This document shows positions 3,155-26,875 of a stretch of 26,875 nt of DNA, one piece after another. Position 1 is the stretch's first letter. Each line of letters starts with the position of its first letter. A program made the position numbers and the translations under genes. Source of the DNA: a virus (lineage: Duplodnaviria > Caudoviricetes); IMG/VR virus record IMGVR_UViG_3300033513_000042, positions 1 to 26,875 of that record, one strand, 5' to 3'. Under the pieces are notes generated by a model. The model ran no database searches. It worked only from the letters and a program-made list of their open reading frames with translations, and had not been told where the DNA came from.

Positions 3155-5081
3155 GCTTGTCTCCTTGTTGTGCCTGCCTTGTGCTCAGTGCGGTCCAGTG
3201 AGTAGCGATAGCACGCTTATTCTCGTTGTGCTCCTGCAGTACCGCAATATTCTCTTTACTCTTGTTGGTTTCCCTGGTTTTCTGCAGGCTTATAACCTGA
3301 GATGACATCTTCTCTTTGAGCTTACCCTGCAGTTGCTGAACCATAACCATAGCTTGACGAAGCTGCATCTGCAGTTGCGTGACTTGTGGGTTGTCAGTGG
3401 TAAAGAATCTACTGCCATCTTGATACCCAAGATGACCAAATATTTCTTTCCCCACCTCGACGAGATTAAGCCCCGGCGTAGGATTCTTAGCCATGTTGCT
3501 GTACATGGTCATGCCAGTGAGGAACTTATTAAGTTTCTGCATCGGGTCCGTGGCGCCCATGCCCACGCTCACACTCAATGTGATTTCTTGTCTGAGTAAC
3601 TCATCGGTAACCTCATCAATGCCAAACCGCTGATATAGCTGCGCCTGCTTAGCTGCCAAGCCCAGCACCACGCGGTCAGTCTCGTACTCCTGTTCCAACA
3701 ACACAAGCTGGCGCAGCACTGGCTGTACCCAAGTCTCTACGAATGTACGAATCAAGTACTCTACCAGCGTTCCGTTACTCTGGTTAAGCATTGTCATATT
3801 GCGGGCGGGCGCGTTACTGGCACCGGCCATCATAATTGCAGCGGGATTGAAGTTACCAAGCAGCTCATCGGTCAGCATATCAATTCCCTGCTGCTCCATG
3901 TAGGCACTCTGCGTAACGTCAGGCCATGTTATTTCTCGTACATCGTTTACGGGGTCATTCATCATCACCACGCCACCGGGCACGTTGCGCACAAGACCAG
4001 ATAAGTCAACCTCAGCGCCACGTTTGGCGAACCACTTCTTGTTCAACGCAAACTTCACATTGTCAATGCGCTGGTTTGCTATCTCATTAACCTCATCCGC
4101 AAGGCCACGGGCCAGTGTGGGCACGCTGCTAGGGGCGGTCTTATGCGTCTCTATGACGCATGAGCCTATCACATACGGGCGCTTGCCATGGAACACTACC
4201 TGCTCCAACGGAACTGGGTCCGTTAGCATGGCGTAGTCCCCAAGGGTGTAAAAGTGCCAATCACGCCCATCACGCCTGTGAATGTGGCGCTGTACCCACG
4301 CAATGTCGTAGTCGTCTAACGCACGATTATCTGAAGACTGCGGATCTTCCTTGTTCACATTCCGTGCAATGCGCGTACTGTCCGGCGCACCGGCAGTGGC
4401 GCGACTCACCGGGTGATCAATCCACTCACCGCTGGCCATCTTCGCCTTGACATCCATGGCGTACATGGGGATGAGTTCAATGAGGTACGGGCTGGTTTCG
4501 GCGATGTTGTGCCACTTGGCGCTAGGATCCCAGCGCATATTTTCTATAGGTATTAGCTCAATGCACGGCTTATCAATACCATGCTCATCGTCATACTCCC
4601 AGTACTGGTGGCTGCACACCAGTCCAGTTGTCTGAGCGTCCTGGATGCCGCCGAGTACCGTCAAAAACCAAGGGATGCTCTTAGCTAGTCGATACTGAAT
4701 GAGACGCTTCATCACCTCAGCACTGGCAAGTTGCGCCTTGTCTGTTTGATCGGACGCGGTAGTGCTGACCGTCTCCATATTGGAGAAAAATGCTGCAGCA
4801 GCGGCTGCTTCATTCTTGCGAATGATAGCTCTGATCTTGGGGCGGTACAGCTTACTTCGCTTATCGTACGCAGGCTGGTTGTACTTGCTATCGCTGGGGT
4901 GCTGGTTGTTAAATGCGCGTATCGCATCCTCCAACTGTTTGCGCAGATTACTGTCGAAGTACGCAGTGCTAGTGCGGAATGCACTGCGGGCACGGGCCAG
5001 CCAATTGTCCTCTCCGCCCTGTTCTGACGGGTCCTCGGTCTGTGCAGTGGGTGGGCGATTGCGATTATCAGGCTGCATCAT
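3135..5081 (-). CDS. Portal protein (P22/N4-like)
   Basis: 648 aa; LYRPKIRAII, NEIANQRIDNV and NVPGGVVMM segments; Gln-rich C-terminal coiled coil; between TerL and scaffold. Confidence 0.85.
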   Translation of the reverse strand: MMQPDNRNRPPTAQTEDPSEQGGEDNWLARARSAFRTSTAYFDSNLRKQLEDAIRAFNNQHPSDSKYNQPAYDKRSKLYRPKIRAIIRKNEAAAAAAFFSNMETVSTTASDQTDKAQLASAEVMKRLIQYRLAKSIPWFLTVLGGIQDAQTTGLVCSHQYWEYDDEHGIDKPCIELIPIENMRWDPSAKWHNIAETSPYLIELIPMYAMDVKAKMASGEWIDHPVSRATAGAPDSTRIARNVNKEDPQSSDNRALDDYDIAWVQRHIHRRDGRDWHFYTLGDYAMLTDPVPLEQVVFHGKRPYVIGSCVIETHKTAPSSVPTLARGLADEVNEIANQRIDNVKFALNKKWFAKRGAEVDLSGLVRNVPGGVVMMNDPVNDVREITWPDVTQSAYMEQQGIDMLTDELLGNFNPAAIMMAGASNAPARNMTMLNQSNGTLVEYLIRTFVETWVQPVLRQLVLLEQEYETDRVVLGLAAKQAQLYQRFGIDEVTDELLRQEITLSVSVGMGATDPMQKLNKFLTGMTMYSNMAKNPTPGLNLVEVGKEIFGHLGYQDGSRFFTTDNPQVTQLQMQLRQAMVMVQQLQGKLKEKMSSQVISLQKTRETNKSKENIAVLQEHNENKRAIATHWTALSTRQAQQGDKRGSSTE

Positions 5082-5431
5082 TTCTCCCAGACTTGTTTCT
5101 CATGCTCGGGATGGGTCTCACCCATGTTGCGCTTGACCTGCACTGCTCTATCGTCGTAGAGCGCCTGCATGCGATGGTCCTTCACGTTCGTAATCTGCAG
5201 CACCTCGCCCAGGTGCTCCTTCATCCAACGACGGATGGCGGGGTGCGGCTTGCGTGCGGTGAACAGCCGTACATCTCTACCCTCTTGCCGCCAACGCCGT
5301 ACCCTCTTCACCATCTCATCCACGGGGGCACCCACGTGATCGTCTCCACGGTAATGGTCATAGTGGGCCAGCGTACCGTCCAGGTCTACGCCAATCCATC
5401 CATTGCCCTGCTTACGTGGGTCAGTAGCCAC
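5078..5431 (-). CDS. HAD-superfamily phosphatase (PNK 3'-phosphatase-like)
   Basis: HAD motif I IGVDLDGTL, motif II FTAR, Lys of motif III (TNVK), motif IV YDDR; ATGA overlap with the portal start. Confidence 0.8.
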   Translation of the reverse strand: MATDPRKQGNGWIGVDLDGTLAHYDHYRGDDHVGAPVDEMVKRVRRWRQEGRDVRLFTARKPHPAIRRWMKEHLGEVLQITNVKDHRMQALYDDRAVQVKRNMGETHPEHEKQVWEK

Positions 5432-6052: not shown

Positions 6053-6631
6053 TTATAGCAATGATACTGGGCGTCCATTCCGAAGCGCCCCCGCCAGAGA
6101 CTTTGCCGATGCTATCTTTCCACGCTCGTATATTGACTTTTCTCTACCAATTTGTGATACTCGCTGCCTCTCATGACCTTCCGGCGTCCTCTTGTTGCCT
6201 TTGGCTCTGGTATTGCCAAGCATAATTGTTCTTAGTTTCTCTAGCCCCTCTGGCGTGTGCTTGCATCCAGTAGCACGAGAATTTCCAACTAAGTCTGCAG
6301 ATCGCTGTGCTCTTTGCTCTGCTGTCCACTTGAGGCCCGCAGACCCATCACCACCATCTGTCATGTTGTAGCCATGCGGCACCTTAGTATTGAGGTGTTT
6401 AATGTGCGCTCTCTCCATTGCGCAAAGTTCAGACCAGTCATCTGACTGTACCAGTTCTGTTATTACCACATTCTCTGCGTCGTACTTGGCAATCGCGTTC
6501 CCAACCACTTTGGTGCTGCCGTGCCGTACGGATTCTTCAATGTGACCTACAAAGCGCTCAGCAGCAGTGCGCGAAGTAATGCCAACGTAGAGCTTACCAT
6601 TAGGAAATGTCAGCGTGTATAAACAGCCCAT
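6053..6631 (-). mobile_element. Free-standing GIY-YIG homing endonuclease with NUMOD3-like repeats
   Basis: CLYTLTFPNGKLYVGIT (GIY-YIG), R..H, ERAHIK...GYN.TDGGDG, then repeated HTPE/RTPE-type NUMOD3 motifs. Confidence 0.85.
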
Positions 6632-6682
6632 GCGCAATTATTACACATACACCGGACCACCACAAGCCTGTATTTACCTGCC

Positions 6683-9286
6683 TCACACGAAGTCTGGCTC
6701 TAGGTAAGTTGGTTCTTGGAAGTTCGGAGCTCTCGGCTCAAGGTCATAGATGCGGGACACGGCGTCCACTAAGTCCTTCATCCCCCCGAATGGGAAGAAG
6801 TGTATCTGCATCTTCAGCTCAGCACTGAGGTCGTAGATCTGATTATTCTCGTCCTTACGCTTGATGGGCTGAGCAATTCGGTAGTTGTACCCGGTGTTCA
6901 CCATGTTGCGCTGTTGCTTGGTGTACGCCTTGGGGTCGGTGTCGTAGGGCAGAAACAGACGGTGCGCCCGCAGGTCAGGCCCCAGGCGCTGCACGCGGTC
7001 CACCTTACTGCCCTCACTGTCACGAGGCCACATCAACTCCTCAATTATGAAGTGCCCACCCTGATTCGGCGCGGCCATCTGTTCCTTAAAATAGTCCAGA
7101 TCGGCCTGAGCGCCGAATGCTTCGTACCCCACCTTAATGTTCTGCACACCGGGGGCTCGCTTCCAGCGGTGGTACATCTGCGCAGTGCGCACCCAGCGCT
7201 CTCGCAGGTCCATCTTGTGGTTGAATCCATCCAGCAGATACTTGTTCATGGCATAGTCCACACCAATGACTGCGATGGCTGTCTTGGCGCTGCCCTTCTT
7301 CTTGCTACGGGCGGGGTCAACCATGATGTAGACGTTCAGTGTCTCTGGGCGAATCTCGTACGTCTGCAGGTCCTCAACGTTAAACATCCGCTGCTGGCCA
7401 GCCAGCGGATTCTGCAGCATCTGGCAGGATATGGTGGCCTCGCCTTGATCACGCACCTTGCGCGCCCACACATCCGGTGGCATCAGCACGGGGGAGCCTG
7501 TGATGGTTCCATCGTCAGTGGCGGGGTACAGCCGCACCTTCACCGCGCCGCGCTTAATCATCGCCTCGTAAGTGTCAGCGTAGGAGTATCTAGTGCCGAC
7601 GTGCCACTTCACGCCACTCACGGCGCCGAGGTTATCGCTCAGCTCCCAGGCCTCAGTGGTCTTCGCTATCTGCTCAGGAGTGGACACTGATTCCTTAGTA
7701 ACCACGTCGTCGTACAGCAAAAGTCCAAAGTGCCTGGACGTAGGCTGGCCGTCCACCAGCCCGTGGGCCTCAATGGTGGCCTCCCTGCTGTTAGATGTGC
7801 GCCGCACGGTTATGCCGTTATCCAAGCTCCAGCTCGGTGCCTCGCGCTCTGGGTTCTCCCAGAATATATCTGGGAACAGGGCGCGCAGGTCCTCATTATT
7901 CTCAAACTCCCGCTGTATCTGTCGCAGAAACGCTTTAGCGATCGGCTTTGTGTGGCTGAATATCCCGATCGTCACGTTCGGATCCTGCAGTACGCGCTGG
8001 ATACTACCTGCATATGTTATCACCGTGCTGTTGTGAGTTGTGACGCACTGCGTTCCACAAAGATATAATCCGTCACTCGCAGCAACCTGTATGCAGGACA
8101 CCGGTACTGTGCCCACACGCGTCACACCCCATACCCTGCGGTTGGCGCTACCCTGCCGTGTGCCGGTCTTGCATCGGGATAGCTTACGCGGTAGATAAAA
8201 TGGTGCATCAGCCGTGTACCCTTGAAATGTAACATAGAATACTAGGTCATCTTCAGGGCCAAACTTATTCAGCGCTGGCTTAAGGCCCAGCGTACAGGCC
8301 AACTTGAATACATCATACGCTAGGGCGGCGCACTTATTAACAAACACGCACGTTCCTCTGTCGTTGCAGGTGCCATCTGTGTCCATAAGCCCCTGCAATA
8401 ACGCCCGACGTTGCTCGATACTGCCCAGCATATACTCACGTGGAATGCGCTTATTATGTAGTAGCCCCATGTCCCGTAGCAGAGCAGACAGCCCATATAC
8501 TGTCGCGTTCTTACAGCGAGCAGTGTCATTAAGTGGTGTGTGCGTGTACCCATCTGCACGAATACGCTCGTAAATCTCAACGTCTCCGCATGTAATTCTA
8601 CCCGATGCGTTAGCACCATCACCAAGCCAAGCGCCCAGCGTGTACGGTGCTATGGGCAGCATAGCCGGTACTGTGTACACTGCTGGAGCTACAGGTATTC
8701 TAGCATCACCCTGCCAGAGCATAAGCTCTTTGGTGTCTACAGTCACCGTTCTCCAACCCCGGCGCTTATTGGTTCCAGGCACTCTACGTCTATCTGGTAT
8801 CTGCACGGTCCAAAGATGCTGCGCACTACATACTATACGAGTGCCATCGTCAAAATCTACAGCGTAGCACTCTGCGTCTGTAAACACCTCTGTACAGGCT
8901 ACAACCTGCGTAGGATTACCATCTGCGCCAAATACCCAGTCACCTGGGCGTAGCTCTCCGTGCAGCCTATACCCCGTAGGCGTAAGCACTGGGGTGTCTA
9001 GTGCCAGAGCCTTGAAGTGCTCGCGTGCCCACAGGTCCAGATATCCGTCGGGGTCCTGCTCCACCTCGCGGCAGCGGGCGTACACCCACGGGTGCACTGC
9101 GTACGTGGCGTGCAGCGTGCGGGTTAGGAGGTAGTACCTGTCGTGCTGGCTGAGCCAGCGCTTGCCGCTGGCGCCAAACTGCTGCTCAATGGCCTGCCAC
9201 AGCAGCGCCACCTTGCTGAATGGCGCGGCCATCAGTTGCTGCTTGATGCTATCAGGCAGGTTGATCTGTTGCGGCTGGAGTGACAT
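6683..9286 (-). CDS. terL: Terminase large subunit containing an intein
   Basis: Walker A WAREHFK|ST split by the intein, Walker B LLLYDD, RNase H-like nuclease motifs IMVDPA and KDLVDAVS; about 540 aa after splicing. Confidence 0.92.
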   Translation of the reverse strand: MSLQPQQINLPDSIKQQLMAAPFSKVALLWQAIEQQFGASGKRWLSQHDRYYLLTRTLHATYAVHPWVYARCREVEQDPDGYLDLWAREHFKALALDTPVLTPTGYRLHGELRPGDWVFGADGNPTQVVACTEVFTDAECYAVDFDDGTRIVCSAQHLWTVQIPDRRRVPGTNKRRGWRTVTVDTKELMLWQGDARIPVAPAVYTVPAMLPIAPYTLGAWLGDGANASGRITCGDVEIYERIRADGYTHTPLNDTARCKNATVYGLSALLRDMGLLHNKRIPREYMLGSIEQRRALLQGLMDTDGTCNDRGTCVFVNKCAALAYDVFKLACTLGLKPALNKFGPEDDLVFYVTFQGYTADAPFYLPRKLSRCKTGTRQGSANRRVWGVTRVGTVPVSCIQVAASDGLYLCGTQCVTTHNSTVITYAGSIQRVLQDPNVTIGIFSHTKPIAKAFLRQIQREFENNEDLRALFPDIFWENPEREAPSWSLDNGITVRRTSNSREATIEAHGLVDGQPTSRHFGLLLYDDVVTKESVSTPEQIAKTTEAWELSDNLGAVSGVKWHVGTRYSYADTYEAMIKRGAVKVRLYPATDDGTITGSPVLMPPDVWARKVRDQGEATISCQMLQNPLAGQQRMFNVEDLQTYEIRPETLNVYIMVDPARSKKKGSAKTAIAVIGVDYAMNKYLLDGFNHKMDLRERWVRTAQMYHRWKRAPGVQNIKVGYEAFGAQADLDYFKEQMAAPNQGGHFIIEELMWPRDSEGSKVDRVQRLGPDLRAHRLFLPYDTDPKAYTKQQRNMVNTGYNYRIAQPIKRKDENNQIYDLSAELKMQIHFFPFGGMKDLVDAVSRIYDLEPRAPNFQEPTYLEPDFV
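8030..9010 (-). mobile_element. 327-aa LAGLIDADG intein, Ala1 / class-3-type
   Basis: Starts ALALDTPVLTPTG, block B AQHLW, endonuclease blocks LGAWLGDG and LLQGLMDTDG, block F VSCIQV, ends TTHN followed by Ser+1. Confidence 0.9.
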
Positions 9287-9914
9287 CTACAACTACCTGT
9301 GCGGGGTGCTGATTCTGCAGCACGGATGCGAACTTGTTCACCAGCATGTCCAGCGCTGCGGCCTGCGGCGTCTGCGCCCCAGTATCGCCGTCCTCAGGGT
9401 CCTGCAGCACGGTGGTGATGCCCAGCGCCTGCCGCTCCAGCAGCACCAGCGTCTTCATGCTGGTGGACAGCTTGACCATGATATTAGCGCGGCGCTGCAA
9501 CTCCTCAAGCTCTGGCTCATCCTCCTCAGCCTGCGCGGTCAGCACCCGGTCCATCAGCGTGGTGCAGGCGGTACGGGCCGCGCTTATATCCTTGCGGTGC
9601 TTACTCAGCACCTCCGCCTGCATGGCGGCGTTCACCTTCTCTATCACCTCAAGCTCGGCGCGGCGGCGGGCGTTCATGGCCTCGGTGTTCGCCAGCAGCA
9701 GGGCGGCAGCTTGCGCGGTGGTGTTGCGGGCTCTGTCCCGCGTCCAGCCGCAGCGGCTGGCATGACTTATGAGTGCAGTGGGCTGCACTCCAATCTCAGC
9801 CGCAATAGTCGGCGCTGATTTGTCCGTACTCTCCCACTGGAGCTGGGCGTAGGCCCAGTCGTTCTTCCTACCCGGGGCTACGGCTATGGTGGATGGAGAT
9901 GGTACGTGAGACAT
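9252..9914 (-). CDS. terS: Putative terminase small subunit
   Basis: N-terminal HTH-like SAPTIAAEIGVQPTALISHASRCGWTR, helical body, directly upstream of and overlapping terL. Confidence 0.65.
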   Translation of the reverse strand: MSHVPSPSTIAVAPGRKNDWAYAQLQWESTDKSAPTIAAEIGVQPTALISHASRCGWTRDRARNTTAQAAALLLANTEAMNARRRAELEVIEKVNAAMQAEVLSKHRKDISAARTACTTLMDRVLTAQAEEDEPELEELQRRANIMVKLSTSMKTLVLLERQALGITTVLQDPEDGDTGAQTPQAAALDMLVNKFASVLQNQHPAQVVVDVTPAATDQPA

Positions 9915-10412: not shown

Positions 10413-10805
10413 GTGCATCACCTGTGCCGGGAACTGAAAATAAAATTCTCGAACATCGACAGCCAGAATTTGGAGCGGGGTACTTAGCTCTCTATACAAG
10501 GTACTTAGAATCAAGCGCTCGGAGCTACGTGCATAGCGGTAGAGAACGACTCCGCCCTTTACCCCTCCCTGCCTCAATTCCGGTTCAGGCTAGTCAGTTC
10601 GTCGTCCGGGGGTCCCTACTTATATAAGCCATATACTAAGTGTGCAGTGCCTAACGCTAGTGTCCACTAACATAGTACTCAGCAGTGAGTACTAACTTCT
10701 TCGTACCAAGTGGTTTCAGTTAGTAAGCACTTACATCTTCCATCCTAGGGTAACCCCTTATACCTTGATAGTAAGCGCTAACATCATCTAAATTGTAACA
10801 AGGGC

Positions 10806-10833
10806 TTGTATCGCTGCGCAGTGGCGCTATCAT
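10806..10833 (+). promoter_or_regulatory. Sigma70-like promoter of the GA/TC-depleted gene
   Basis: TTGTAT-16 nt-TATCAT about 65 nt upstream of ATG 10897. Confidence 0.6.
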
Positions 10834-10896
10834 ACTTGCATGCTGCGCAGTGCAGTAAGCCACCCGGGGCCTTGTACCGGGCAAAGGTAATGCAAA

Positions 10897-11379
10897 ATGG
10901 CAAACACCACAGCCAAGGCCACCAAGGCCACCAAAGCCCCCAAGGCCACCACCAAGCAAGCCGCCCCCGGCTTTGTGCAGGGCGTAGGCTTTACCGCCCC
11001 CGCCGCACCGGCCAGCCCGTTGCCCACGGTGCAAACCCCCACGCTGCAAAGCGTGCCCGCCACCACGGTGCAGGTGCCCGCCCAGTACATGGGCTTGCCC
11101 TTTGACCAACTGACCAAAAGCCAACAAGCCTTTGCCACGGCCAAGCGCCCGGTGCAGGTAGCCCCCAAGCTGGCCCAGGCCGCGCTGCAGCTGGGCACGG
11201 TGGCCTACAAGGTGCGCAGCGGCAACAATGCCCACTGGTGGGCAGCGTGCCAAACCGCCATGCAGGCCAACAACGGCCAAGCCACGGCGGCGCAAATGGT
11301 AGCCGCTGGCGCCTGCCCCAAGTTTGTGGGCTACGCGGTCAACCGTAAGTGGCTGGCCGCAGCACCGGCCACGGCCTAA
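10897..11379 (+). CDS. Basic Ala/Thr/Gln/Lys-rich protein encoded by GA/TC-depleted DNA; candidate immediate-early protein
   Basis: 160 aa, AAAGGT RBS, own promoter and terminator; no Glu, no Ile, one Asp. Confidence 0.8.
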   Translation: MANTTAKATKATKAPKATTKQAAPGFVQGVGFTAPAAPASPLPTVQTPTLQSVPATTVQVPAQYMGLPFDQLTKSQQAFATAKRPVQVAPKLAQAALQLGTVAYKVRSGNNAHWWAACQTAMQANNGQATAAQMVAAGACPKFVGYAVNRKWLAAAPATA

Positions 11380-11405
11380 CGCCAGGGGCGCAAGCCCCTG
11401 CCCCC

Positions 11406-11431
11406 AAGCCCCGGGCGCTGCCCGGGGCTTT
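11406..11431 (+). terminator. Rho-independent terminator
   Basis: AAGCCCCGGGC-gct-GCCCGGGGCTT then TGT; a second hairpin CAGGGGC-gcaa-GCCCCTG lies just upstream. Confidence 0.75.
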
Positions 11432-11460
11432 GTCGCCTGCGATTTGAAGTAAGCGCTAAC

Positions 11461-11890
11461 TTCTCAATCCCTGATCTGCGATCCAAGAACTAAGACCGTC
11501 CAGCACAGCCTCTCAGTCCCCGATCCTTGACCTTTAGCACCAGCGCCAGCGCCCAGGCACTGCCAAGCACCGACGCCAGACCATCTAGCAGCGCGTAGGA
11601 CGCGCTCAGCCCCCAGTGCCTAGGCTACCCCACCAGCACGGGACGGCAATGCGTCGTATGCAGTTCTCAGTTCTAAGCTCTCAGTCCCTGATCAAAGACC
11701 AGAGTCGCTCAGCACTGAGTTCTCCGTTCGTAGTCTTCAGTTCCTAGGAATAAATTCTAAACTCGCGTGTGCGAGTGACTATGAGATTAGAATTGAGCGC
11801 TAAGAATCAAGTGTGTAGTGCTTAGGATTAAGATCTGCGGGACTGGTGGATGCGTCACAGTAGCACGCATTTGGTGCTCAGTTCGTAGCT
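11461..11890. repeat. Degenerate 7-bp-period repeat array
   Basis: TTCTCAA TCCCTGA TCTGCGA TCCAAGA ACTAAGA; TTCTCAG TTCTAAG CTCTCAG TCCCTGA TCAAAGA; TTCTCCG TTCGTAG TCTTCAG TTCCTAG. Confidence 0.65.
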
Positions 11891-11904
11891 TTTAAACCAC
11901 ATCT

Positions 11905-12129
11905 TGTAATGGTGTAATGCTGTAATGGCACCCCAAAACCTATATATATTACGCATACGGCACTTGAAACGACATACTAGCCATTATGGGGGTCGTATGG
12001 CGCAAATGAATCTAAACACTTTACACCCGCACACATATGCTTAATATTGCCATTACACCATTACACCATTACAAACCAAGCAAATAGCGTTTAAAACCAA
12101 GCACTTAGCCTGTAATGGTGCTGTAATGG
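11905..12129. repeat. Iteron-like TGTAATGG/CCATTACA repeats, putative replication origin
   Basis: Three copies at 11905-11928 (one TGTAATGC), three inverted copies at 12050-12073, two more at 12111 and 12122, with AT-rich spacer TATATATATT. Confidence 0.7.
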
Positions 12130-12160
12130 TGGACGCTTTTAAGCCCCCCACCCTTACAGT

Positions 12161-15574: not shown

Positions 15575-17734
15575 CTACAGGCCCAGCGCCCGCAGGTGAC
15601 GGCGCACCACCTCTGTGTCCTCCCACTGCTCAGTCTTACGGCGGATAACCCAGAATACCGCTGGATTACCCCCGCTCACCGGGCGCACTTGCTTGCCGCC
15701 GTTCGCGGTTTTGAAGCCTCGGTTACGCAACGCATCGCCCATCGCCTTTATGCGGCCCGGGCTTAGCTCCACCTCGCTACACTGATAATGCAGGCTAGCA
15801 AGTTCCTTGCTGGTGTACAGCGCCTTGCCCACGCCGCCGAATAGGCCCAGCGTAGTGTCTGGATCTTGGTATAGATTATGGACGAAAAACTCCAGCGAGT
15901 TCATGCTGGCTTCCTTTACATCCTGCTTCCAGGATGTTTCTGGTGCCCATGCGGCGGGGTCGAACTTCGACGTGTCGTACTTTAACAAAAAGTCATACAG
16001 TGCGGCTGGCCCCACAGTATCAGCCCAGCGTACATACTTTAACCAGTAAGGTTGATCTCCCCTGCGGTCTACTCCCCCGGCCTCGGTAGCGTCCCACCGC
16101 ACAACGCACGCACGCCGGTCGTCTTGGTCGAGCTTGATACAGTCCCAGTAGTTGGAGGTAATGGCGAGGTTATTGTGGTTGTCAACTTCGTACTCGGGCT
16201 GGCCCTTGCGGTTGACGTTTATGGTTTCTGAAGTTACCAGAAACTTGATCTTTTGGCTGACAGCGTCTTCCTCACCCTTCGCTCTAGTCAATTCGTCAGC
16301 GTGTACAAATTGACGCTGCGCGTAAAGGCTGGTAAAAGTACTCTTTATGTTCTCATTTGTAACTATGATGCCGTTATGCCCATAGATGCCGTGGAAGGGT
16401 TTTAGGAATAGATTTTTCCCTGTGCCGCTGGGGCCGAACATGAGCAGGAAGCTATTCATCTTCTTGCCCAGGTTCTGTAGTGGATAGGCGCACCAGCTGA
16501 TGATCCAATCCCTTAACCAATCATCCTTGACGCTATTGGTCAGCAGTTCAAGCCATGGGTCTACATCTCCAAGTTCTGGTGCAGCACCCATGCCTCGCCA
16601 CAGGTTCAAATCCGGTAGACCAGTGTGCCCCTGCACTAGACGCGGCAAGCCTGGGCTGTAGACCAAGCTCTGCGCCACTACCCTATCTGGGCTCTGCAGC
16701 CACAGCTTGGGCACGTTCACACGCCTAACATCTTCTCCATCCTCAACATCGGCAACAAAGTGCGCATAGTTGACGTCAGTAAACACAGCCCGGGTCATCA
16801 AATCGCCAGTGTCCTGCATGGCGATGCGCCCCAGCTCCATGACTACGCACACTTCGTTAGATAGCTGCAGCATCATCTGGTGCAGTTCGCTAATGTCTGC
16901 AAGTGTGCCCTCTCGCTCCAGGAATCCCAGCGCCAGCGTATCACCTACGAAGCGCCTGTAGTCATCAAACCCCTGGTCTCCTTCTTCTGGCTTAGGTACG
17001 CGCAGAATTGTAGCGTGCCGCCCCGTAACCTCCATCAACTTAGCGGCGAGTGCTGACTCCGCAGCCTGTACCTGCCAATTGTCCCATGCGTTGGAATCGA
17101 ACACGATAACAGGCTCTAGCTGCAGAGCCTTCCACGGCAGATCACGTAACTCCTCAATCAACGCGATGTTGTGTTTGCGGCTGCGCCAGCCCCACACGCC
17201 GTTCAAGCCTATGCTGGCCTTGCCGAGCAGTGCACCGTTTATGGCCTTGATAGCAGACTCGTGGATGTACACGCGGTCTCCATGCTTCAGGGAGTTCCAA
17301 TCAAATATTGGTGGCAGGTATCCGTGCGGAGGTTCGTTGGGGGGACAGAACATCTTTCCCCATTTAGGGCTGCTTTCGGCCCTGGCGCTGGGGTCTACAA
17401 AGTCGCCAAAGCTGGCTACAAGACGCACGGCAGGGGGCGCGTCCGCAATGGGCACCAAGCGGCTGCTCCACCACTCTATTAAGTCATCACGCCGCCCCAG
17501 CTTATAGTGAGGGAAGACGACTGCCGCCCTACCATCCGCTGCATTGACTGCGGGTGACCTGCGGGCGGCTGCAATCAGTTCGATTGCTGGCATGATGTGG
17601 AGACCTAGCGCGTCAGCCGTGGCACGATCAATGCCACGCTCAGCTAGGTAGGTCCAAACTTTTTCAATTCCGGGAAGTTTCTTTTCGTCTCTGGCATTTG
17701 TGAATGACAGAGAAATTTCTTGCATGGTAAGCAA
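15575..17734 (-). CDS. Primase-helicase (Toprim/DUF3854-like N-terminus, SF3/D5-like helicase, C-terminal winged-helix-like domain)
   Basis: YIHESAIKA, GLNGVWGW, IVFDSN and QGFDDY Toprim-like motifs; Walker A GPSGTGKN, Walker B VHADE, motif C ITSN, DDRR; TTG start with GGAG RBS. Confidence 0.85.
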   Translation of the reverse strand: MLTMQEISLSFTNARDEKKLPGIEKVWTYLAERGIDRATADALGLHIMPAIELIAAARRSPAVNAADGRAAVVFPHYKLGRRDDLIEWWSSRLVPIADAPPAVRLVASFGDFVDPSARAESSPKWGKMFCPPNEPPHGYLPPIFDWNSLKHGDRVYIHESAIKAINGALLGKASIGLNGVWGWRSRKHNIALIEELRDLPWKALQLEPVIVFDSNAWDNWQVQAAESALAAKLMEVTGRHATILRVPKPEEGDQGFDDYRRFVGDTLALGFLEREGTLADISELHQMMLQLSNEVCVVMELGRIAMQDTGDLMTRAVFTDVNYAHFVADVEDGEDVRRVNVPKLWLQSPDRVVAQSLVYSPGLPRLVQGHTGLPDLNLWRGMGAAPELGDVDPWLELLTNSVKDDWLRDWIISWCAYPLQNLGKKMNSFLLMFGPSGTGKNLFLKPFHGIYGHNGIIVTNENIKSTFTSLYAQRQFVHADELTRAKGEEDAVSQKIKFLVTSETINVNRKGQPEYEVDNHNNLAITSNYWDCIKLDQDDRRACVVRWDATEAGGVDRRGDQPYWLKYVRWADTVGPAALYDFLLKYDTSKFDPAAWAPETSWKQDVKEASMNSLEFFVHNLYQDPDTTLGLFGGVGKALYTSKELASLHYQCSEVELSPGRIKAMGDALRNRGFKTANGGKQVRPVSGGNPAVFWVIRRKTEQWEDTEVVRRHLRALGL

Positions 17735-19412: not shown

Positions 19413-20861
19413 ATGGCTGCAAAAGACCTCAAAGACGCGGGCGAAGTCGCCCACATTGCTGACATCGTCTACCACGGTGACAAGCTCACGCTGCCCGAGG
19501 GCATGGAAATTCCGGATGCCATCACGCTGCTGAAGGACCGACAGGACTTCCTCGAAACCGACGTTGCCATGTCCGAGACTTTCAACGTGTTTCCCTGGGA
19601 CGGCGCCTACGCGCTGGACAAGGTGCTGACCAAGAAGTTCGGCTGGGCTGCGGCAACGGCTACGCCCGGGTTCTTCGGCCCCCGGCCACCGCAACTGGTG
19701 TCCATCGACATCGCCTACGGCCAGAAGAGCGAAGTGCCGTGGGGCTCGTTCTCCATCCCCAAGGCCAAGGGCCTGCTGGCCACCGCTGCGGCCTGGAGTG
19801 GCAACCGCGTGGCCTTCCAGTTGAACGCCAAGGTCAAGCGCAAAGACGAGGCCACCATCCGCGCCATCTTCGCCGAGGTGCGCGAGTTCCTCAAGGAGAA
19901 CAGCATCTACCGTGGCAAGGCCATCAAGCTGCGCTTCTGCGACGACGCCGGCAACGACCTGGACATGCCGGAGCCCAAGTTCCTCGAGACCGGCAAGCTG
20001 CGCCCCGAGCACCTGATCTACAGTGCCGATGTGCAGAACTCCATCGAGACCAACCTGTTTACCCCCATCAGCCGCGTGCGTGACTGCATCGACAACGACC
20101 TGTCCGTCAAGCGCGGCGTGCTGCTGGGTGGCCCCTACGGCACCGGCAAGACGCTGGCCGCAACGGTGGCGAGCACGCTGGCGGTGGAAGCAGGCGTAAC
20201 GTACATCTACGTGCCGCGTGCTGACGAGTTGGCCAAGGCCATCGAGTTCGCCAAGCAGTACCAGAGCCCGGCCTGCGTGGTCTTCTGCGAGGACATCGAC
20301 CGCGTGATGGACGGTGAGCGTGACGTGGAGATGGACGACATCCTGAACATCATCGACGGCATCGACACCAAGAACTCCAACATCATCACTGTGCTGACCA
20401 CCAACGCCATGCGCAGCATCAATCCGGCCATGCTCCGCCCGGGGCGCCTGGATGCTGTGATCGAGGTCACCCCGCCTGACGCTGAAGCGGTGCAACGCCT
20501 GCTGCGCCTGTACGGCGGCAGCAATGTGGCTGTGGACGCCGACCTCTCTGCCGTGGGCAGTGAGCTGGCGGGCTGCATCCCGGCGGTGATTGCCGAGGTG
20601 GTGAAGCGTGCCAAGCTCAGTCAGGTGCGGCTGAACGCTCCCGGCGAGCGGGTCAAGCTGCTGAGTAGCGACGCCCTGTTGGACGCCGCCAAGACCATGC
20701 GTGCGCAGGTGAAGCTGCTGGAGGAAACCAGTGCGCCCAAGGACCCGGCCATCACCGTGGACTCCACTCTGGCCGTGGTGATGGAGCGTGCGGTTGCCCC
20801 GCTGATGGACCGTATCTCCGACCTGGAGAAGGACATCTCTCACGTGAAGGACAGGATCTAA
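19413..20861 (+). CDS. AAA+ ATPase (classic AAA clade, no protease domain)
   Basis: RGVLLGGPYGTGKT Walker A, VFCEDID Walker B, LTTN sensor 1, AMLRPGRLD second region of homology; strong codon bias. Confidence 0.92.
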   Translation: MAAKDLKDAGEVAHIADIVYHGDKLTLPEGMEIPDAITLLKDRQDFLETDVAMSETFNVFPWDGAYALDKVLTKKFGWAAATATPGFFGPRPPQLVSIDIAYGQKSEVPWGSFSIPKAKGLLATAAAWSGNRVAFQLNAKVKRKDEATIRAIFAEVREFLKENSIYRGKAIKLRFCDDAGNDLDMPEPKFLETGKLRPEHLIYSADVQNSIETNLFTPISRVRDCIDNDLSVKRGVLLGGPYGTGKTLAATVASTLAVEAGVTYIYVPRADELAKAIEFAKQYQSPACVVFCEDIDRVMDGERDVEMDDILNIIDGIDTKNSNIITVLTTNAMRSINPAMLRPGRLDAVIEVTPPDAEAVQRLLRLYGGSNVAVDADLSAVGSELAGCIPAVIAEVVKRAKLSQVRLNAPGERVKLLSSDALLDAAKTMRAQVKLLEETSAPKDPAITVDSTLAVVMERAVAPLMDRISDLEKDISHVKDRI

Positions 20862-22211: not shown

Positions 22212-23168
22212 ATGAATTTTCTCAATTGGTTTTACAAGGATGTTGTGCAGGAAGACCCCTACGGGCGAGACAAGACTCGTACTGTCAGGGTGCTGCAGCC
22301 CGTGCGAGTGGCCGTGGCGGGGGTGCTGCTCTTCATCACACTTATCATTCTGCTCTCTGCGTGGCCGTTCCATGTGGTGCCCACGGGCTACCGGGGTGTG
22401 GTGACTCAGTTCGGCGCCATAAAGGGCATTGAGCCCGAGGGTCTGGTGGTGCTACCGCCGTGGCAGAGCCTGAACAACTTCAACACCCGGGCAGAAGAAG
22501 CCAAGGTAGAGAACGCTGAGGGAGCCACGAGTGATACTCAACCAGTGAACGTTAGCATGGTGGTGCGCTACGCCATCAACACCGACAAAGTGGCCGAGGT
22601 GTTCGAGAAGTACAGCCGCAACGGGGACCTCTCCAGTTATGTGAACACCGCCACGCACGAGACGTTCAAAGCAGTCACTGCCAAGTACACCGCGCCTGAT
22701 TTGATTGCCAAGCGCACCGCAGTATCCGGTGATGTGTACTCCATGCTGAATGCAAAGCTCGGCATCTATGGTGCGCGGGTTATCAACATTGACATGACCA
22801 ACTTCGCGTTCCAGCCTGCGTACATGGCCGCGATCAACGAGAAGGTGACGCAAGAGCAGAAAAAGCTGGCGGCAGACAACCGGCTGAAGACCGTCGAATC
22901 TGAGCAGAAGCAGAAGGTTGCTGTGGCCGAGGCCGATGCCAGCGCAGTCAAGGCCAAGGCGGATGGCGACGCATACGCGCAGCTCACCGTAGCCAAGGCG
23001 CAGGCCGACGCACTGCGTCTGCAGAACGCCGCCATCCGTGAGAGCAAGGACGTACTCGAGCTCAAGCGCATCGAGGTGAGCAAGATCGAAGCCGAGCGCT
23101 GGAATGGTCAGCGCGTGCCCACCACACAACTCGTAGTCAGCCCCACGCCTATCGCGCAGGTGAAGTGA
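22212..23168 (+). CDS. SPFH/band-7 (prohibitin/HflC-like) membrane protein
   Basis: TM helix then VVPTGYRGVVTQFG, FKAVTAKYTAPDLIAKR, AAINEKV, AEA-rich coiled coil, RWNG. Confidence 0.92.
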   Translation: MNFLNWFYKDVVQEDPYGRDKTRTVRVLQPVRVAVAGVLLFITLIILLSAWPFHVVPTGYRGVVTQFGAIKGIEPEGLVVLPPWQSLNNFNTRAEEAKVENAEGATSDTQPVNVSMVVRYAINTDKVAEVFEKYSRNGDLSSYVNTATHETFKAVTAKYTAPDLIAKRTAVSGDVYSMLNAKLGIYGARVINIDMTNFAFQPAYMAAINEKVTQEQKKLAADNRLKTVESEQKQKVAVAEADASAVKAKADGDAYAQLTVAKAQADALRLQNAAIRESKDVLELKRIEVSKIEAERWNGQRVPTTQLVVSPTPIAQVK

Positions 23169-25836: not shown

Positions 25837-26875
25837 ATGAAGAAGATTGAGAAACTTACACCAGCGCAAGAACAAGATTTGCGCGATACCTATCAGCGCT
25901 GGCTTGCTGTTGGACGCAGCACGGCACCAATTGACCGACCTAAGGCTGAAGCCGTCATCTCGTCGATGTACCAGGCCATTGGCAAGAAAGCCCCAATCTT
26001 TCTGCATTTCACATCGCCACTGATTGCTATGATCGCAATTTCCGTTATGCGAACGGAAATGGAAAAAACGCAGCTCGGGGACCAGCTCGGGGGCCAGCTC
26101 GGGGACCAGCTCAGGGGCCAGCTCAGGGACCAGCTCGGGGGCCAGCTCGGGGACCAGCTCGGGGGCCAGCTCGGGGGCCAGCTCTGGGACCAGCTCGGGG
26201 ACCAGCTCAGGGGCCAGCTCAGGGGCCAGCTCAGGGACCAGCTCGGGGGCCAGCTCGGGGGCCAGCTCAGGGACCAGCTCGGGGGCCAGCTCGGGGACCA
26301 GCTCTGGGGCCAGCTCGGGGACCAGCTCAGGGGCCAGCTCTGGGGCCAGCTCGGGGACCAGCTCAGGGGCCAGCTCAGGGGCCAGCTCAGGGGCCAGCTC
26401 GGGGGCCAGCTCGGGGACCAGCGCGGGGACCAGCTCAGGGGCCAGCTCAGGGGCCAGCTCCGGGGCCAGCTCGGGGGCCAGCTCGGGGACCAGCTCGGGG
26501 ACCAGCTCAGGGGCCAGCTCAGGGGCCAGCTCGGGGGCCAGCTCGGGGGCCAGCTCGGGGGCCAGCTCAACTGGAACTATTTCGGCGGACAACACTGGTG
26601 CGCTTGGGAGGTTTTTTACGATTTTTGCAGCCGGGTTGGGGTTCAATACACGCCAGATCAACGTGCTAGGCTTGACCTTTGGCTTGAGCAATCAAACCAA
26701 TTGCAGTGGTGGTGGCCCATGAATGGTGTCTGCGTAATTGCGGAACGCCACTCGGTTCTGCACGTAGATGAGCGAGGACGATTGCACTGTGAAGATGGCC
26801 CGGCCTGTGCGTATACGGACGGCTACAAGCTCTTTGCAATCCATGGCATCTTTGTCAAAGAACAGATCGTAATGA
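25837..26875 (+). CDS. DUF6745-like protein with tetrapeptide repeat insert; runs off the window and is absent from the ORF track
   Basis: MKKIEKLTPAQEQ...RW...STAPIDR..AE...Y...P...FTSP, then (QL[G/R/W][G/D])n, then GGQHWCAW..FYDF...WWWP..GVCVIAER...DERGRLHCEDGPA..YTDG..LFAIHG. Confidence 0.85.
   Translation, partial: MKKIEKLTPAQEQDLRDTYQRWLAVGRSTAPIDRPKAEAVISSMYQAIGKKAPIFLHFTSPLIAMIAISVMRTEMEKTQLGDQLGGQLGDQLRGQLRDQLGGQLGDQLGGQLGGQLWDQLGDQLRGQLRGQLRDQLGGQLGGQLRDQLGGQLGDQLWGQLGDQLRGQLWGQLGDQLRGQLRGQLRGQLGGQLGDQRGDQLRGQLRGQLRGQLGGQLGDQLGDQLRGQLRGQLGGQLGGQLGGQLNWNYFGGQHWCAWEVFYDFCSRVGVQYTPDQRARLDLWLEQSNQLQWWWPMNGVCVIAERHSVLHVDERGRLHCEDGPACAYTDGYKLFAIHGIFVKEQIVM
26071..26568 (+). repeat. About 41.5 tandem copies of the 12-bp unit CAGCTCNGGGRC
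   Basis: In-frame minisatellite; variation almost confined to unit positions 7 and 11, plus one CAGCGC unit. Confidence 0.95.

Follow-up and report, generated by a model that had tools for sequence, protein, structure and literature searches.

A gene-sized island purged of GA and TC dinucleotides in a podovirus-like phage and its association with predicted thymidine hypermodification genes in relatives

Target-site avoidance in the phage DNA that enters the cell first is a feature of T5 and T7, and CAjan reportedly carries a dPreQ0 modification at GA. Hypermodification of thymidine via 5-hydroxymethyldeoxyuridine (5-hmdU) is described for M6/YuA, ViI, phiW-14, and SH-Ab 15599 (PMC8989533, PMC6449724, PMC13458397), with TG/TC as the known context of 5-hydroxymethyluracil (hmU) hypermodification (PMC6449724; PMC13458397); a phage T-dioxygenase is described as preferring NTC (PMC13229309). 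Base J and phage GT-A glycosyltransferases form a further group (bioRxiv 10.1101/2023.12.21.572611), heptose addition to phage DNA has a precedent on 5hmC, and phage JL001 (PhiJL001) has a cluster with a glucosyltransferase and an hmU synthase. The dPreQ0 system of phage iggy is specific for the GA dinucleotide, and a term search of the text of PMC10484667 found no mention of target avoidance. In the literature searched, mostly open-access papers and their main texts, we found no published account of GA/TC-free islands like the one described below and no description of a phage gene purged of the phage's own modification target, which agrees with an earlier note on this DNA that knew of no matching system.

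We analyzed a 26,875-nucleotide stretch of viral DNA (the window), a 26.9-kb fragment of a podovirus-like phage with capsid, portal, terminase, primase-helicase, and early genes. Its major capsid protein is 54% identical to those of the xuquatrovirus-like podoviruses PTXU04 and Bas95; Bas95 is described as restriction sensitive (PMC11990801), and it has neither the modification cluster nor the gene or island discussed here. The island spans 10832..11432 (a strandless feature) and holds three GA/TC sites in 601 bp by direct count: GA at 11104, GA at 11112, and TC at 11339, all within TGACC/GGTCA. It is bounded by a TC at 10830 upstream and a TC at 11433 downstream, and our recount between these positions agrees with the two GA and one TC, all in that context, that the earlier note had listed. 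The GA/TC-free gaps inside the island measure 274, 227, and 94 bp; outside it, such gaps in the window reach at most 121 bp.

The expectation of several tens of sites was borne out. Mononucleotide shuffles of 10832..11432 gave a mean of 63.7 GA/TC and a minimum of 41 (n = 20,000), and a protein-conditioned null, in which the 160-aa protein was re-encoded 20,000 times with the codon usage of the 26 other ORFs of the window, predicted 28.4 sites where 3 are observed; no run came out at 3 or fewer, and none was below 14. Amino acid composition, which the earlier note had named as a possible refutation, thus does not explain the depletion. Shuffling the gene's own synonymous codons yielded 11.1 GA expected versus 2 observed, indicating that GA is avoided at codon junctions as well. 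The codon choices and clean untranslated regions pointed out earlier are also real: all five Phe codons are TTT (window usage, 126 TTC to 61 TTT), all four Ser codons are AGC, CTC is absent, the protein has no Glu, no Ile, and one Asp, and both UTRs are free of GA and TC. The GC content of the island is ∼66%. The purge works on dinucleotides whatever the reading frame; since synonymous, junction, and noncoding sites comply and homologs repeat the pattern, we conclude, as had been proposed, that selection acts on the DNA and not on the protein. The purge of the island is a genuine, family-wide, strongly selected feature.

The gene itself (10897..11379, plus strand) encodes an Ala/Pro/Thr/Lys-rich N-terminal tail and a conserved C-terminal domain of ∼65 aa. 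A GA-free ribosome-binding site, AAAGGT (10883..10888, plus strand), lies 8 nt 5' of the ATG. Upstream, a candidate sigma70-type promoter, TTGTAT-16-TATCAT, can be read at 10806..10833 (plus strand), with the final upstream TC sites (10811 and 10830) inside its hexamers, and two copies of GCTGCGCAG (10813 and 10842; strandless, 10813..10850) flank the −10 box as candidate operators. Two GC-rich hairpins occupy 11380..11432 (plus strand), the second of which (11406 to 11430) is followed by a short U run, making it a candidate terminator. The promoter and terminator taken earlier as the ends of the unit are readable in the sequence, but a consensus scan of the window called neither and instead called TTGATA-18-TAAATT at 10765-10794 as a promoter; no sigma54 promoter in the window matched the generally known consensus at 11 or more of 12 positions. 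The statement that GA and TC return on both flanks holds downstream, where the noncoding flank (11433..11830, strandless) has a GA/TC density at least as high as the window's and contains CTCTCAGTCCC/GATC repeats. It does not hold for GA upstream: coding-strand GA stays rare for ∼200 bp beyond the island, with at most 3 over 754 bp. By dinucleotide counts, the upstream zone (10600..10830, plus strand) is poor in coding-strand GA and rich in TC (9 GA versus 65 TC per kb between −300 and −70), so the template strand is almost TC free beyond the island. A repeat, TAGTAAGCRCT(T/A)AC, is present on both sides of the island (10683-10788 and 11447-11466), and similar repeats flank the homologs in L233 and G065 (L numbers denote loci; G numbers, genome records).

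Elsewhere in the window, the terminase small- and large-subunit genes (6683..9914, minus strand) are divergent from the island gene. The large subunit (TerL; 867 aa, 6683-9286) is matched by relatives only over its C-terminal ∼450 aa, and the additional part, which matches profiles of other terminases and of primases, points to an intein; TerL is followed at 6053-6637 by a gene for a GIY-YIG homing endonuclease. At 11904-12131, TGTAATGG(TG) direct and inverted repeats surround an AT-rich core, with 27-nt arms that are 96% complementary and a 121-bp GA/TC-free gap, and this region is likely a replication origin. A 12-bp tandem array at 26071-26568 (41.5 copies, 90% match) is open in several frames, and the early genes include an AAA+ ATPase and a band-7/lipoprotein-like gene at 19413-20861 and 22212-23168.

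To follow the purge across the family, DNA was compared for 26 distinct homologous loci, a count that omits L004 (the window itself), L016 and L019 (on the same contigs as L007 and L008), and L020 to L022 (near copies of L011). Depletion was scored with the protein-conditioned null at a P value of <0.01, using window codon usage for 10 loci on short contigs; L066 was scored but assigned to another family, and L001, a 24-residue weak match without an island, was dropped. Both GA and TC are depleted in 14 of the 26 loci, only partly so in L046 and L072, and the homologs do not lack the bias, the other outcome that the earlier note had said would speak against its reading. Two loci are depleted of coding-strand GA alone (L229, 0 versus 8.0 expected; L233, 1 versus 12.1), with normal coding TC; L230, nearly of this GA-only class, has low GA and is enriched in coding TC (36 versus 22 expected). 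The remaining nine are relaxed for GA, six of them in one clade, and relaxed homologs of similar composition reach the expected GA/TC. GA/TC-free stretches extend to 884 bp in L010 and 660 bp in L012. Phylogenetically, the relaxed clade nests within purged relatives (support 100/99 inside 98/93) on a tree that is otherwise poorly resolved, suggesting that relaxation is probably derived. In this clade, that of L008, coding GA is back and coding TC is still low in three of six loci; this polarity, GA regained before TC, is opposite to that of a template-strand model.

The nature of the changes bears on their cause. Most of the changes that separate relaxed from purged alleles are other than G>A or C>T, a pattern that favors selection over deamination, and L005 has AA at only 5 of 132 sites (non-independent counts) where six relaxed relatives have GA. 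All eight GA/TC-containing trinucleotide classes are depleted ∼6- to 27-fold in a strict set of nine loci; the purged target is therefore not a longer motif. The weight formerly placed on the TGACC context does not generalize, since 3 of the 46 sites left in 12 purged loci are GGTCA, and we rejected a TGACC exemption as a family rule.

The purge of G065 and L006 continues for hundreds of base pairs into apparently noncoding DNA close to the terminase genes. L012 (9084-9390) and L072 (∼5000-5290) each have, downstream of the homolog, another small ORF or region that is nearly GA/TC free, and in L257 (7372-7635; G061), a second, unpurged paralog-like ORF lies directly 5' of the GA-free gene. Strand-polarized TC or GA tandem arrays (GGTCGTC, TATTCGGCTCGGCTCA, and GACGGACGAC) occur right after the terminator in L005 (1390-1440) and L010 (1017-1110) and downstream of L008, L013, and L015; these arrays are possibly heavily modified insulators. 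Sigma54-like motifs are present upstream of the gene in 7 of 27 loci, and three match the generally known consensus perfectly, so non-immediate expression is possible. Perfect or near-perfect matches to TGGCAC-N5-TTGCW were seen in L010, L023, L236, L009, L046, L229, and L233, and motifs on the opposite strand were seen in L014, L018, and G001; the motifs of relatives point at the island gene or the terminase genes. A literature search found nothing relevant on YuA sigma54 promoters.

The island protein has 31 close matches, including itself, and 113 profile matches. The close set contains 0.63% Glu, 0.48% Asp, and 0.76% Ile, the family is Ala rich (25%), and Glu plus Asp stays below 2% in 54 of 100 short distant matches; low acidic content is also found in some relaxed members. 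We regard the family as likely one of small winged-helix proteins nearly devoid of Glu, Asp, and Ile, with the fold as a lead: comparison with a structure atlas gave TM scores of 0.42 to 0.60 to PatA_N, DUF742, and PriA clusters, 11 of 104 family members have an AbiEi_4 match (best E value, 2.5e-4), and a single-sequence model of the 160-aa protein has a pLDDT of 43, too low for use. Searches for the protein gave no match in PHROG, none in PDB below an E value of 0.3, and a single weak match among annotated phages (E = 8). No match was found in the genome contig database, and hence no prophage or host link for the gene. Among 50 records searched with the A3 profile, three carriers of the gene turned up, all of them already known. 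Homology between the island protein and the NPKRxGS small protein of the modification cluster is unsupported (hhalign probability, 0.3%). In G007 (L066, 2130-2468), an NPKxxGS-type small gene divergent from the terminase small-subunit gene sits at the island's position, with partial GA depletion (8 versus 15.4). Where its context is visible, the island gene is a stand-alone unit adjoining the terminase genes, near the primase, in either orientation.

The first of two explanations offered earlier, that virion DNA is modified at TC/GA, gains support from the relatives, in which a 5-hmU hypermodification cluster is found in five of five near-complete gene-bearing genomes; the cluster is absent from the window contig. 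The closest long relatives are G001 (TerL, 80% identical) and G003 (TerL, 76%; capsid, 89%), and the window's primase-helicase (15575..17734, minus strand) is 67-68% identical to that of cluster-bearing G001. In both, PolA and an SNF2 helicase are followed by a pyrimidine-dimer-glycosylase fusion, a TAGT glycosyltransferase, an aGPT-Pplase, a ThyA homolog, a DUF3310-like gene, and ADP-heptose-like genes (PfkB, SIS, cytidylyltransferase, and HAD; L104, 9047-11366, in G001 and L109, 9524-11997, in G003). The four last-named genes, lying inside the DNA modification operon, resemble a complete ADP-heptose pathway, and the aGPT-Pplases of G001 and G003 have FSKW where others have KY or KYL. The G003 record does not span the island region.

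All five near-complete gene-bearing genomes carry a dUMP-hydroxymethylase-like gene, a TAGT glycosyltransferase, and an aGPT-Pplase. The ThyA-like gene is present in all five gene-bearing records that are at least 90% complete and in 6 of 10 overall, the four misses being records that are 31 to 44% complete. TAGT, HMUDK_hel, and ThyA occur together in G001, G062 to G065, and G067, and in the same six, PF20691 (JGT-like GT-A) adjoins ThyA, with a DDD motif in six of six and EDF in five of six by pattern. PF18723 (aGPT-Pplase/AADT) is found in relatives, with its catalytic Cys in a CE motif in the seven of seven examined. The ThyA motif PCN..RSND..WG..GAN of the relatives matches that of M6, YuA, JL001, and Ab18, and their ThyA-like enzyme carries the uracil-type Asn at the position that is Asp in the CMP enzyme MilA; Asn177 is named as the pyrimidine determinant in a reference listed by PMC13326640. 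The 5-hmU DNA kinase (PF18748) was found in none of four near-complete relatives (M6 control positive), the TGT family (PF01702) was found in none of five near-complete genomes with controls positive in 14 of 14, a model that a divergent DpdA could escape, and the genes common to both virion types include no unassigned DpdA-sized ORF. No RNA polymerase gene was found among the ORFs scanned in these genomes.

Compared with M6-type systems, the relatives have the same active-site motif in the ThyA-like enzyme and a conserved CE motif in the aGPT-Pplase/AADT, and their predicted target falls in the TG/TC context. They differ in lacking the kinase and carrying a TAGT glycosyltransferase instead, and the purged step here is TC only, whereas M6 is modified at TG/TC; M6, YuA, and Ab18 also have no island. 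Like base J and phage GT-A enzymes, the relatives carry GT-A DDD and EDF motifs, with the difference that hmU, formed ahead of replication, is the predicted acceptor here. JL001, with its comparable cluster, has no island. The pathway, as judged by its genes, thus resembles M6-type hypermodification minus the kinase and base J synthesis with a predicted product.

Across two virion types, the gene stays with the replication/modification module. G062 to G065 and G067 have a terminase and capsid unlike the window's, with the same PolA and modification module and without heptose genes, and a primase of the window type is found in G062, G063, and G065, weakly in G064, and not in the G067 fragment. 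In a panel of 35 records, several of them partial, scored by the lowest GA/TC count per 350-bp window, the gene is present in 11; all seven records with 10 or fewer GA/TC per 350 bp carry it, and the 24 without it have 12 or more. Among the cluster carriers, the count is 0 in G065, 6 in G067, and 10 in G064. Cluster-less capsid kin (G005, G006, G008, G009, G010, and Bas95) have neither gene nor island, with one match at an E value of 0.066 in G009. No island is present in nine TAGT-, AADT-, and ThyA-containing records without the gene or in M6, YuA, and Ab18 (the lowest count in any of these being 12 per 350 bp), and on this panel we reject the idea that hmU or TAGT phages generally have one. 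Low single-strand windows in six hmU/TAGT records proved to be one tandem repeat and otherwise one-strand bias or AT-rich intergenic DNA, with G057 mildly depleted; none is a comparable gene island. The presence of a cluster does not by itself impose an island, since the gene is relaxed in G001 and G063 and both retain the cluster, its TAGT and AADT motifs intact. Genome-wide junction GA/TC bias is mixed: it is 0.80/0.69 in the window, 0.71/0.63 in G001, and 0.81/0.75 in G065 but near or above 1 in G003 and G064, and cluster-less controls lie at 0.92 to 1.05 for GA and 0.81 to 1.10 for TC.

That the purge is real, acts on DNA, and recurs across the family is observed; that the island avoids the phage's own TC mark we consider probable. 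The cluster (ThyA-like, TAGT, aGPT-Pplase/AADT-like, and DUF3310) is present in relatives and presumed for the window's phage. Like its relatives, this phage would make 5-hydroxymethyluracil DNA and place a bulky sugar on T in 5'-TC-3', the product being a base-J-like glycosyl-hmU made without a kinase, with TC as its preferred context. Virion DNA would enter modified, and the unit would be transcribed from parental DNA by host RNA polymerase, which the sugar would hinder above all on the template strand; the island would have been rewritten to carry no modification target. Bulky groups are described as typically blocking bacterial RNA polymerase at promoters and template-strand modifications as inhibiting T7 RNA polymerase more than non-template ones; glucosyl-hmC DNA is still transcribed, so that a sugar need not block transcription (PMC11550810). 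The purge is strand symmetric because GA on one strand is TC on the other, and L229 and L233, which purge only coding-strand GA, that is, template TC, point to the template strand as the stricter constraint. At the weakest step, the small basic, putatively winged-helix protein may bind modified DNA or its promoters and make the remaining genome transcribable. We infer that the gene is expressed first and read by host RNA polymerase, and we lean slightly toward the entire chain, from a TC-specific sugar on hmU-derived T through a cassette kept clean for the host enzyme to a product that helps express the rest.

The same TC-specific modification could be avoided for another reason, and we hold it unlikely, yet deserving of weight, that the island escapes a host modification-dependent nuclease or glycosylase until an anti-defense factor or DNA coat is made or that it avoids a protein coating its own gene or a nearby origin or pac site. 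END nucleases are described as cutting hypermodified phages, some of which encode inhibitors (PMC12191111), and variation among lineages with intact clusters fits host-dependent pressure. The noncoding purge beside the terminase genes in G065 and L006, together with the second ORF in L012, fits protection of a protein-binding region as well as transcription. Yet both strands should then count, whereas L229, L233, and L230 keep or enrich coding-strand TC, and a nuclease would still find the remainder of the genome exposed. Those GA-only loci (L229 and L233) and the GA-free ribosome-binding site would suit evasion at the RNA level, in which GA is kept out of the mRNA as the site where a CmdT-like ADP-ribosyltransferase or a GA-specific RNase would attack transcripts; CmdT is described as modifying the A of GA in single-stranded RNA, including Shine-Dalgarno sequences (PMC11618068). 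We find this improbable, as in 14 of 26 loci the purge affects TC on the coding strand no less strongly than GA, upstream and noncoding DNA is purged too, and the tie to the DNA modification cluster is left unexplained.

A mark on a base other than T, whether the G of GA (as 7-deazaguanine in iggy and CAjan) or another, is very unlikely. The DpdA of iggy is described as having a strict GA motif (PMC10484667); here, unlike in iggy, the search described above, within the reach of its Pfam model, found no TGT/DpdA-like gene, and both the lack of a shared DpdA-sized ORF and the uracil-type Asn of the ThyA-like enzyme speak against it. The second of the earlier explanations, a host effector (DarT, a TC deaminase, or restriction enzymes) that selected or mutated sites away from unmodified DNA, is as poorly supported. 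Deaminases do act in a TC context, and TC forms part of DarT motifs, but every TC context is purged, the allelic differences are mostly not of the deamination type, AA rarely stands in for GA in L005, and the island is GC rich. A compositional artifact of an Ala/Pro/Thr/Gln-rich low-complexity protein, which the Ala-rich and acid-poor character of the family, some relaxed members included, might suggest, is in effect refuted by the protein-conditioned and synonymous-codon nulls, the compliant UTRs, and the relaxed homologs of similar composition.

If the island does avoid a TC mark made by the phage itself, as we prefer to read it, the chemistry would amount to a variant of known hypermodification; the purged island, for its part, has no counterpart in the literature searched. 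Like the motif-free leading regions of T5 and T7, possibly with their takeover gene, the island spares a unit; it differs from them in that what is avoided is a dinucleotide, which probably marks the phage's own modification, and in that avoidance prevails over amino acid choice. Strict, template-only, and relaxed alleles of one gene occur naturally in these islands, which predict the TC context of a kinase-free TAGT/AADT pathway from sequence alone, and reading islands could serve to infer modification motifs in uncultured phages. More tentatively, and with doubt prevailing, a base-J-like sugar at TC may silence the incoming genome, one mark-free cassette may switch on the modified rest, and strand-polarized TC arrays may act as chemical terminators. 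If this is true, gene regulation in these phages would be written in dinucleotide content, strongly enough to strip Glu, Asp, and Ile from a protein family.
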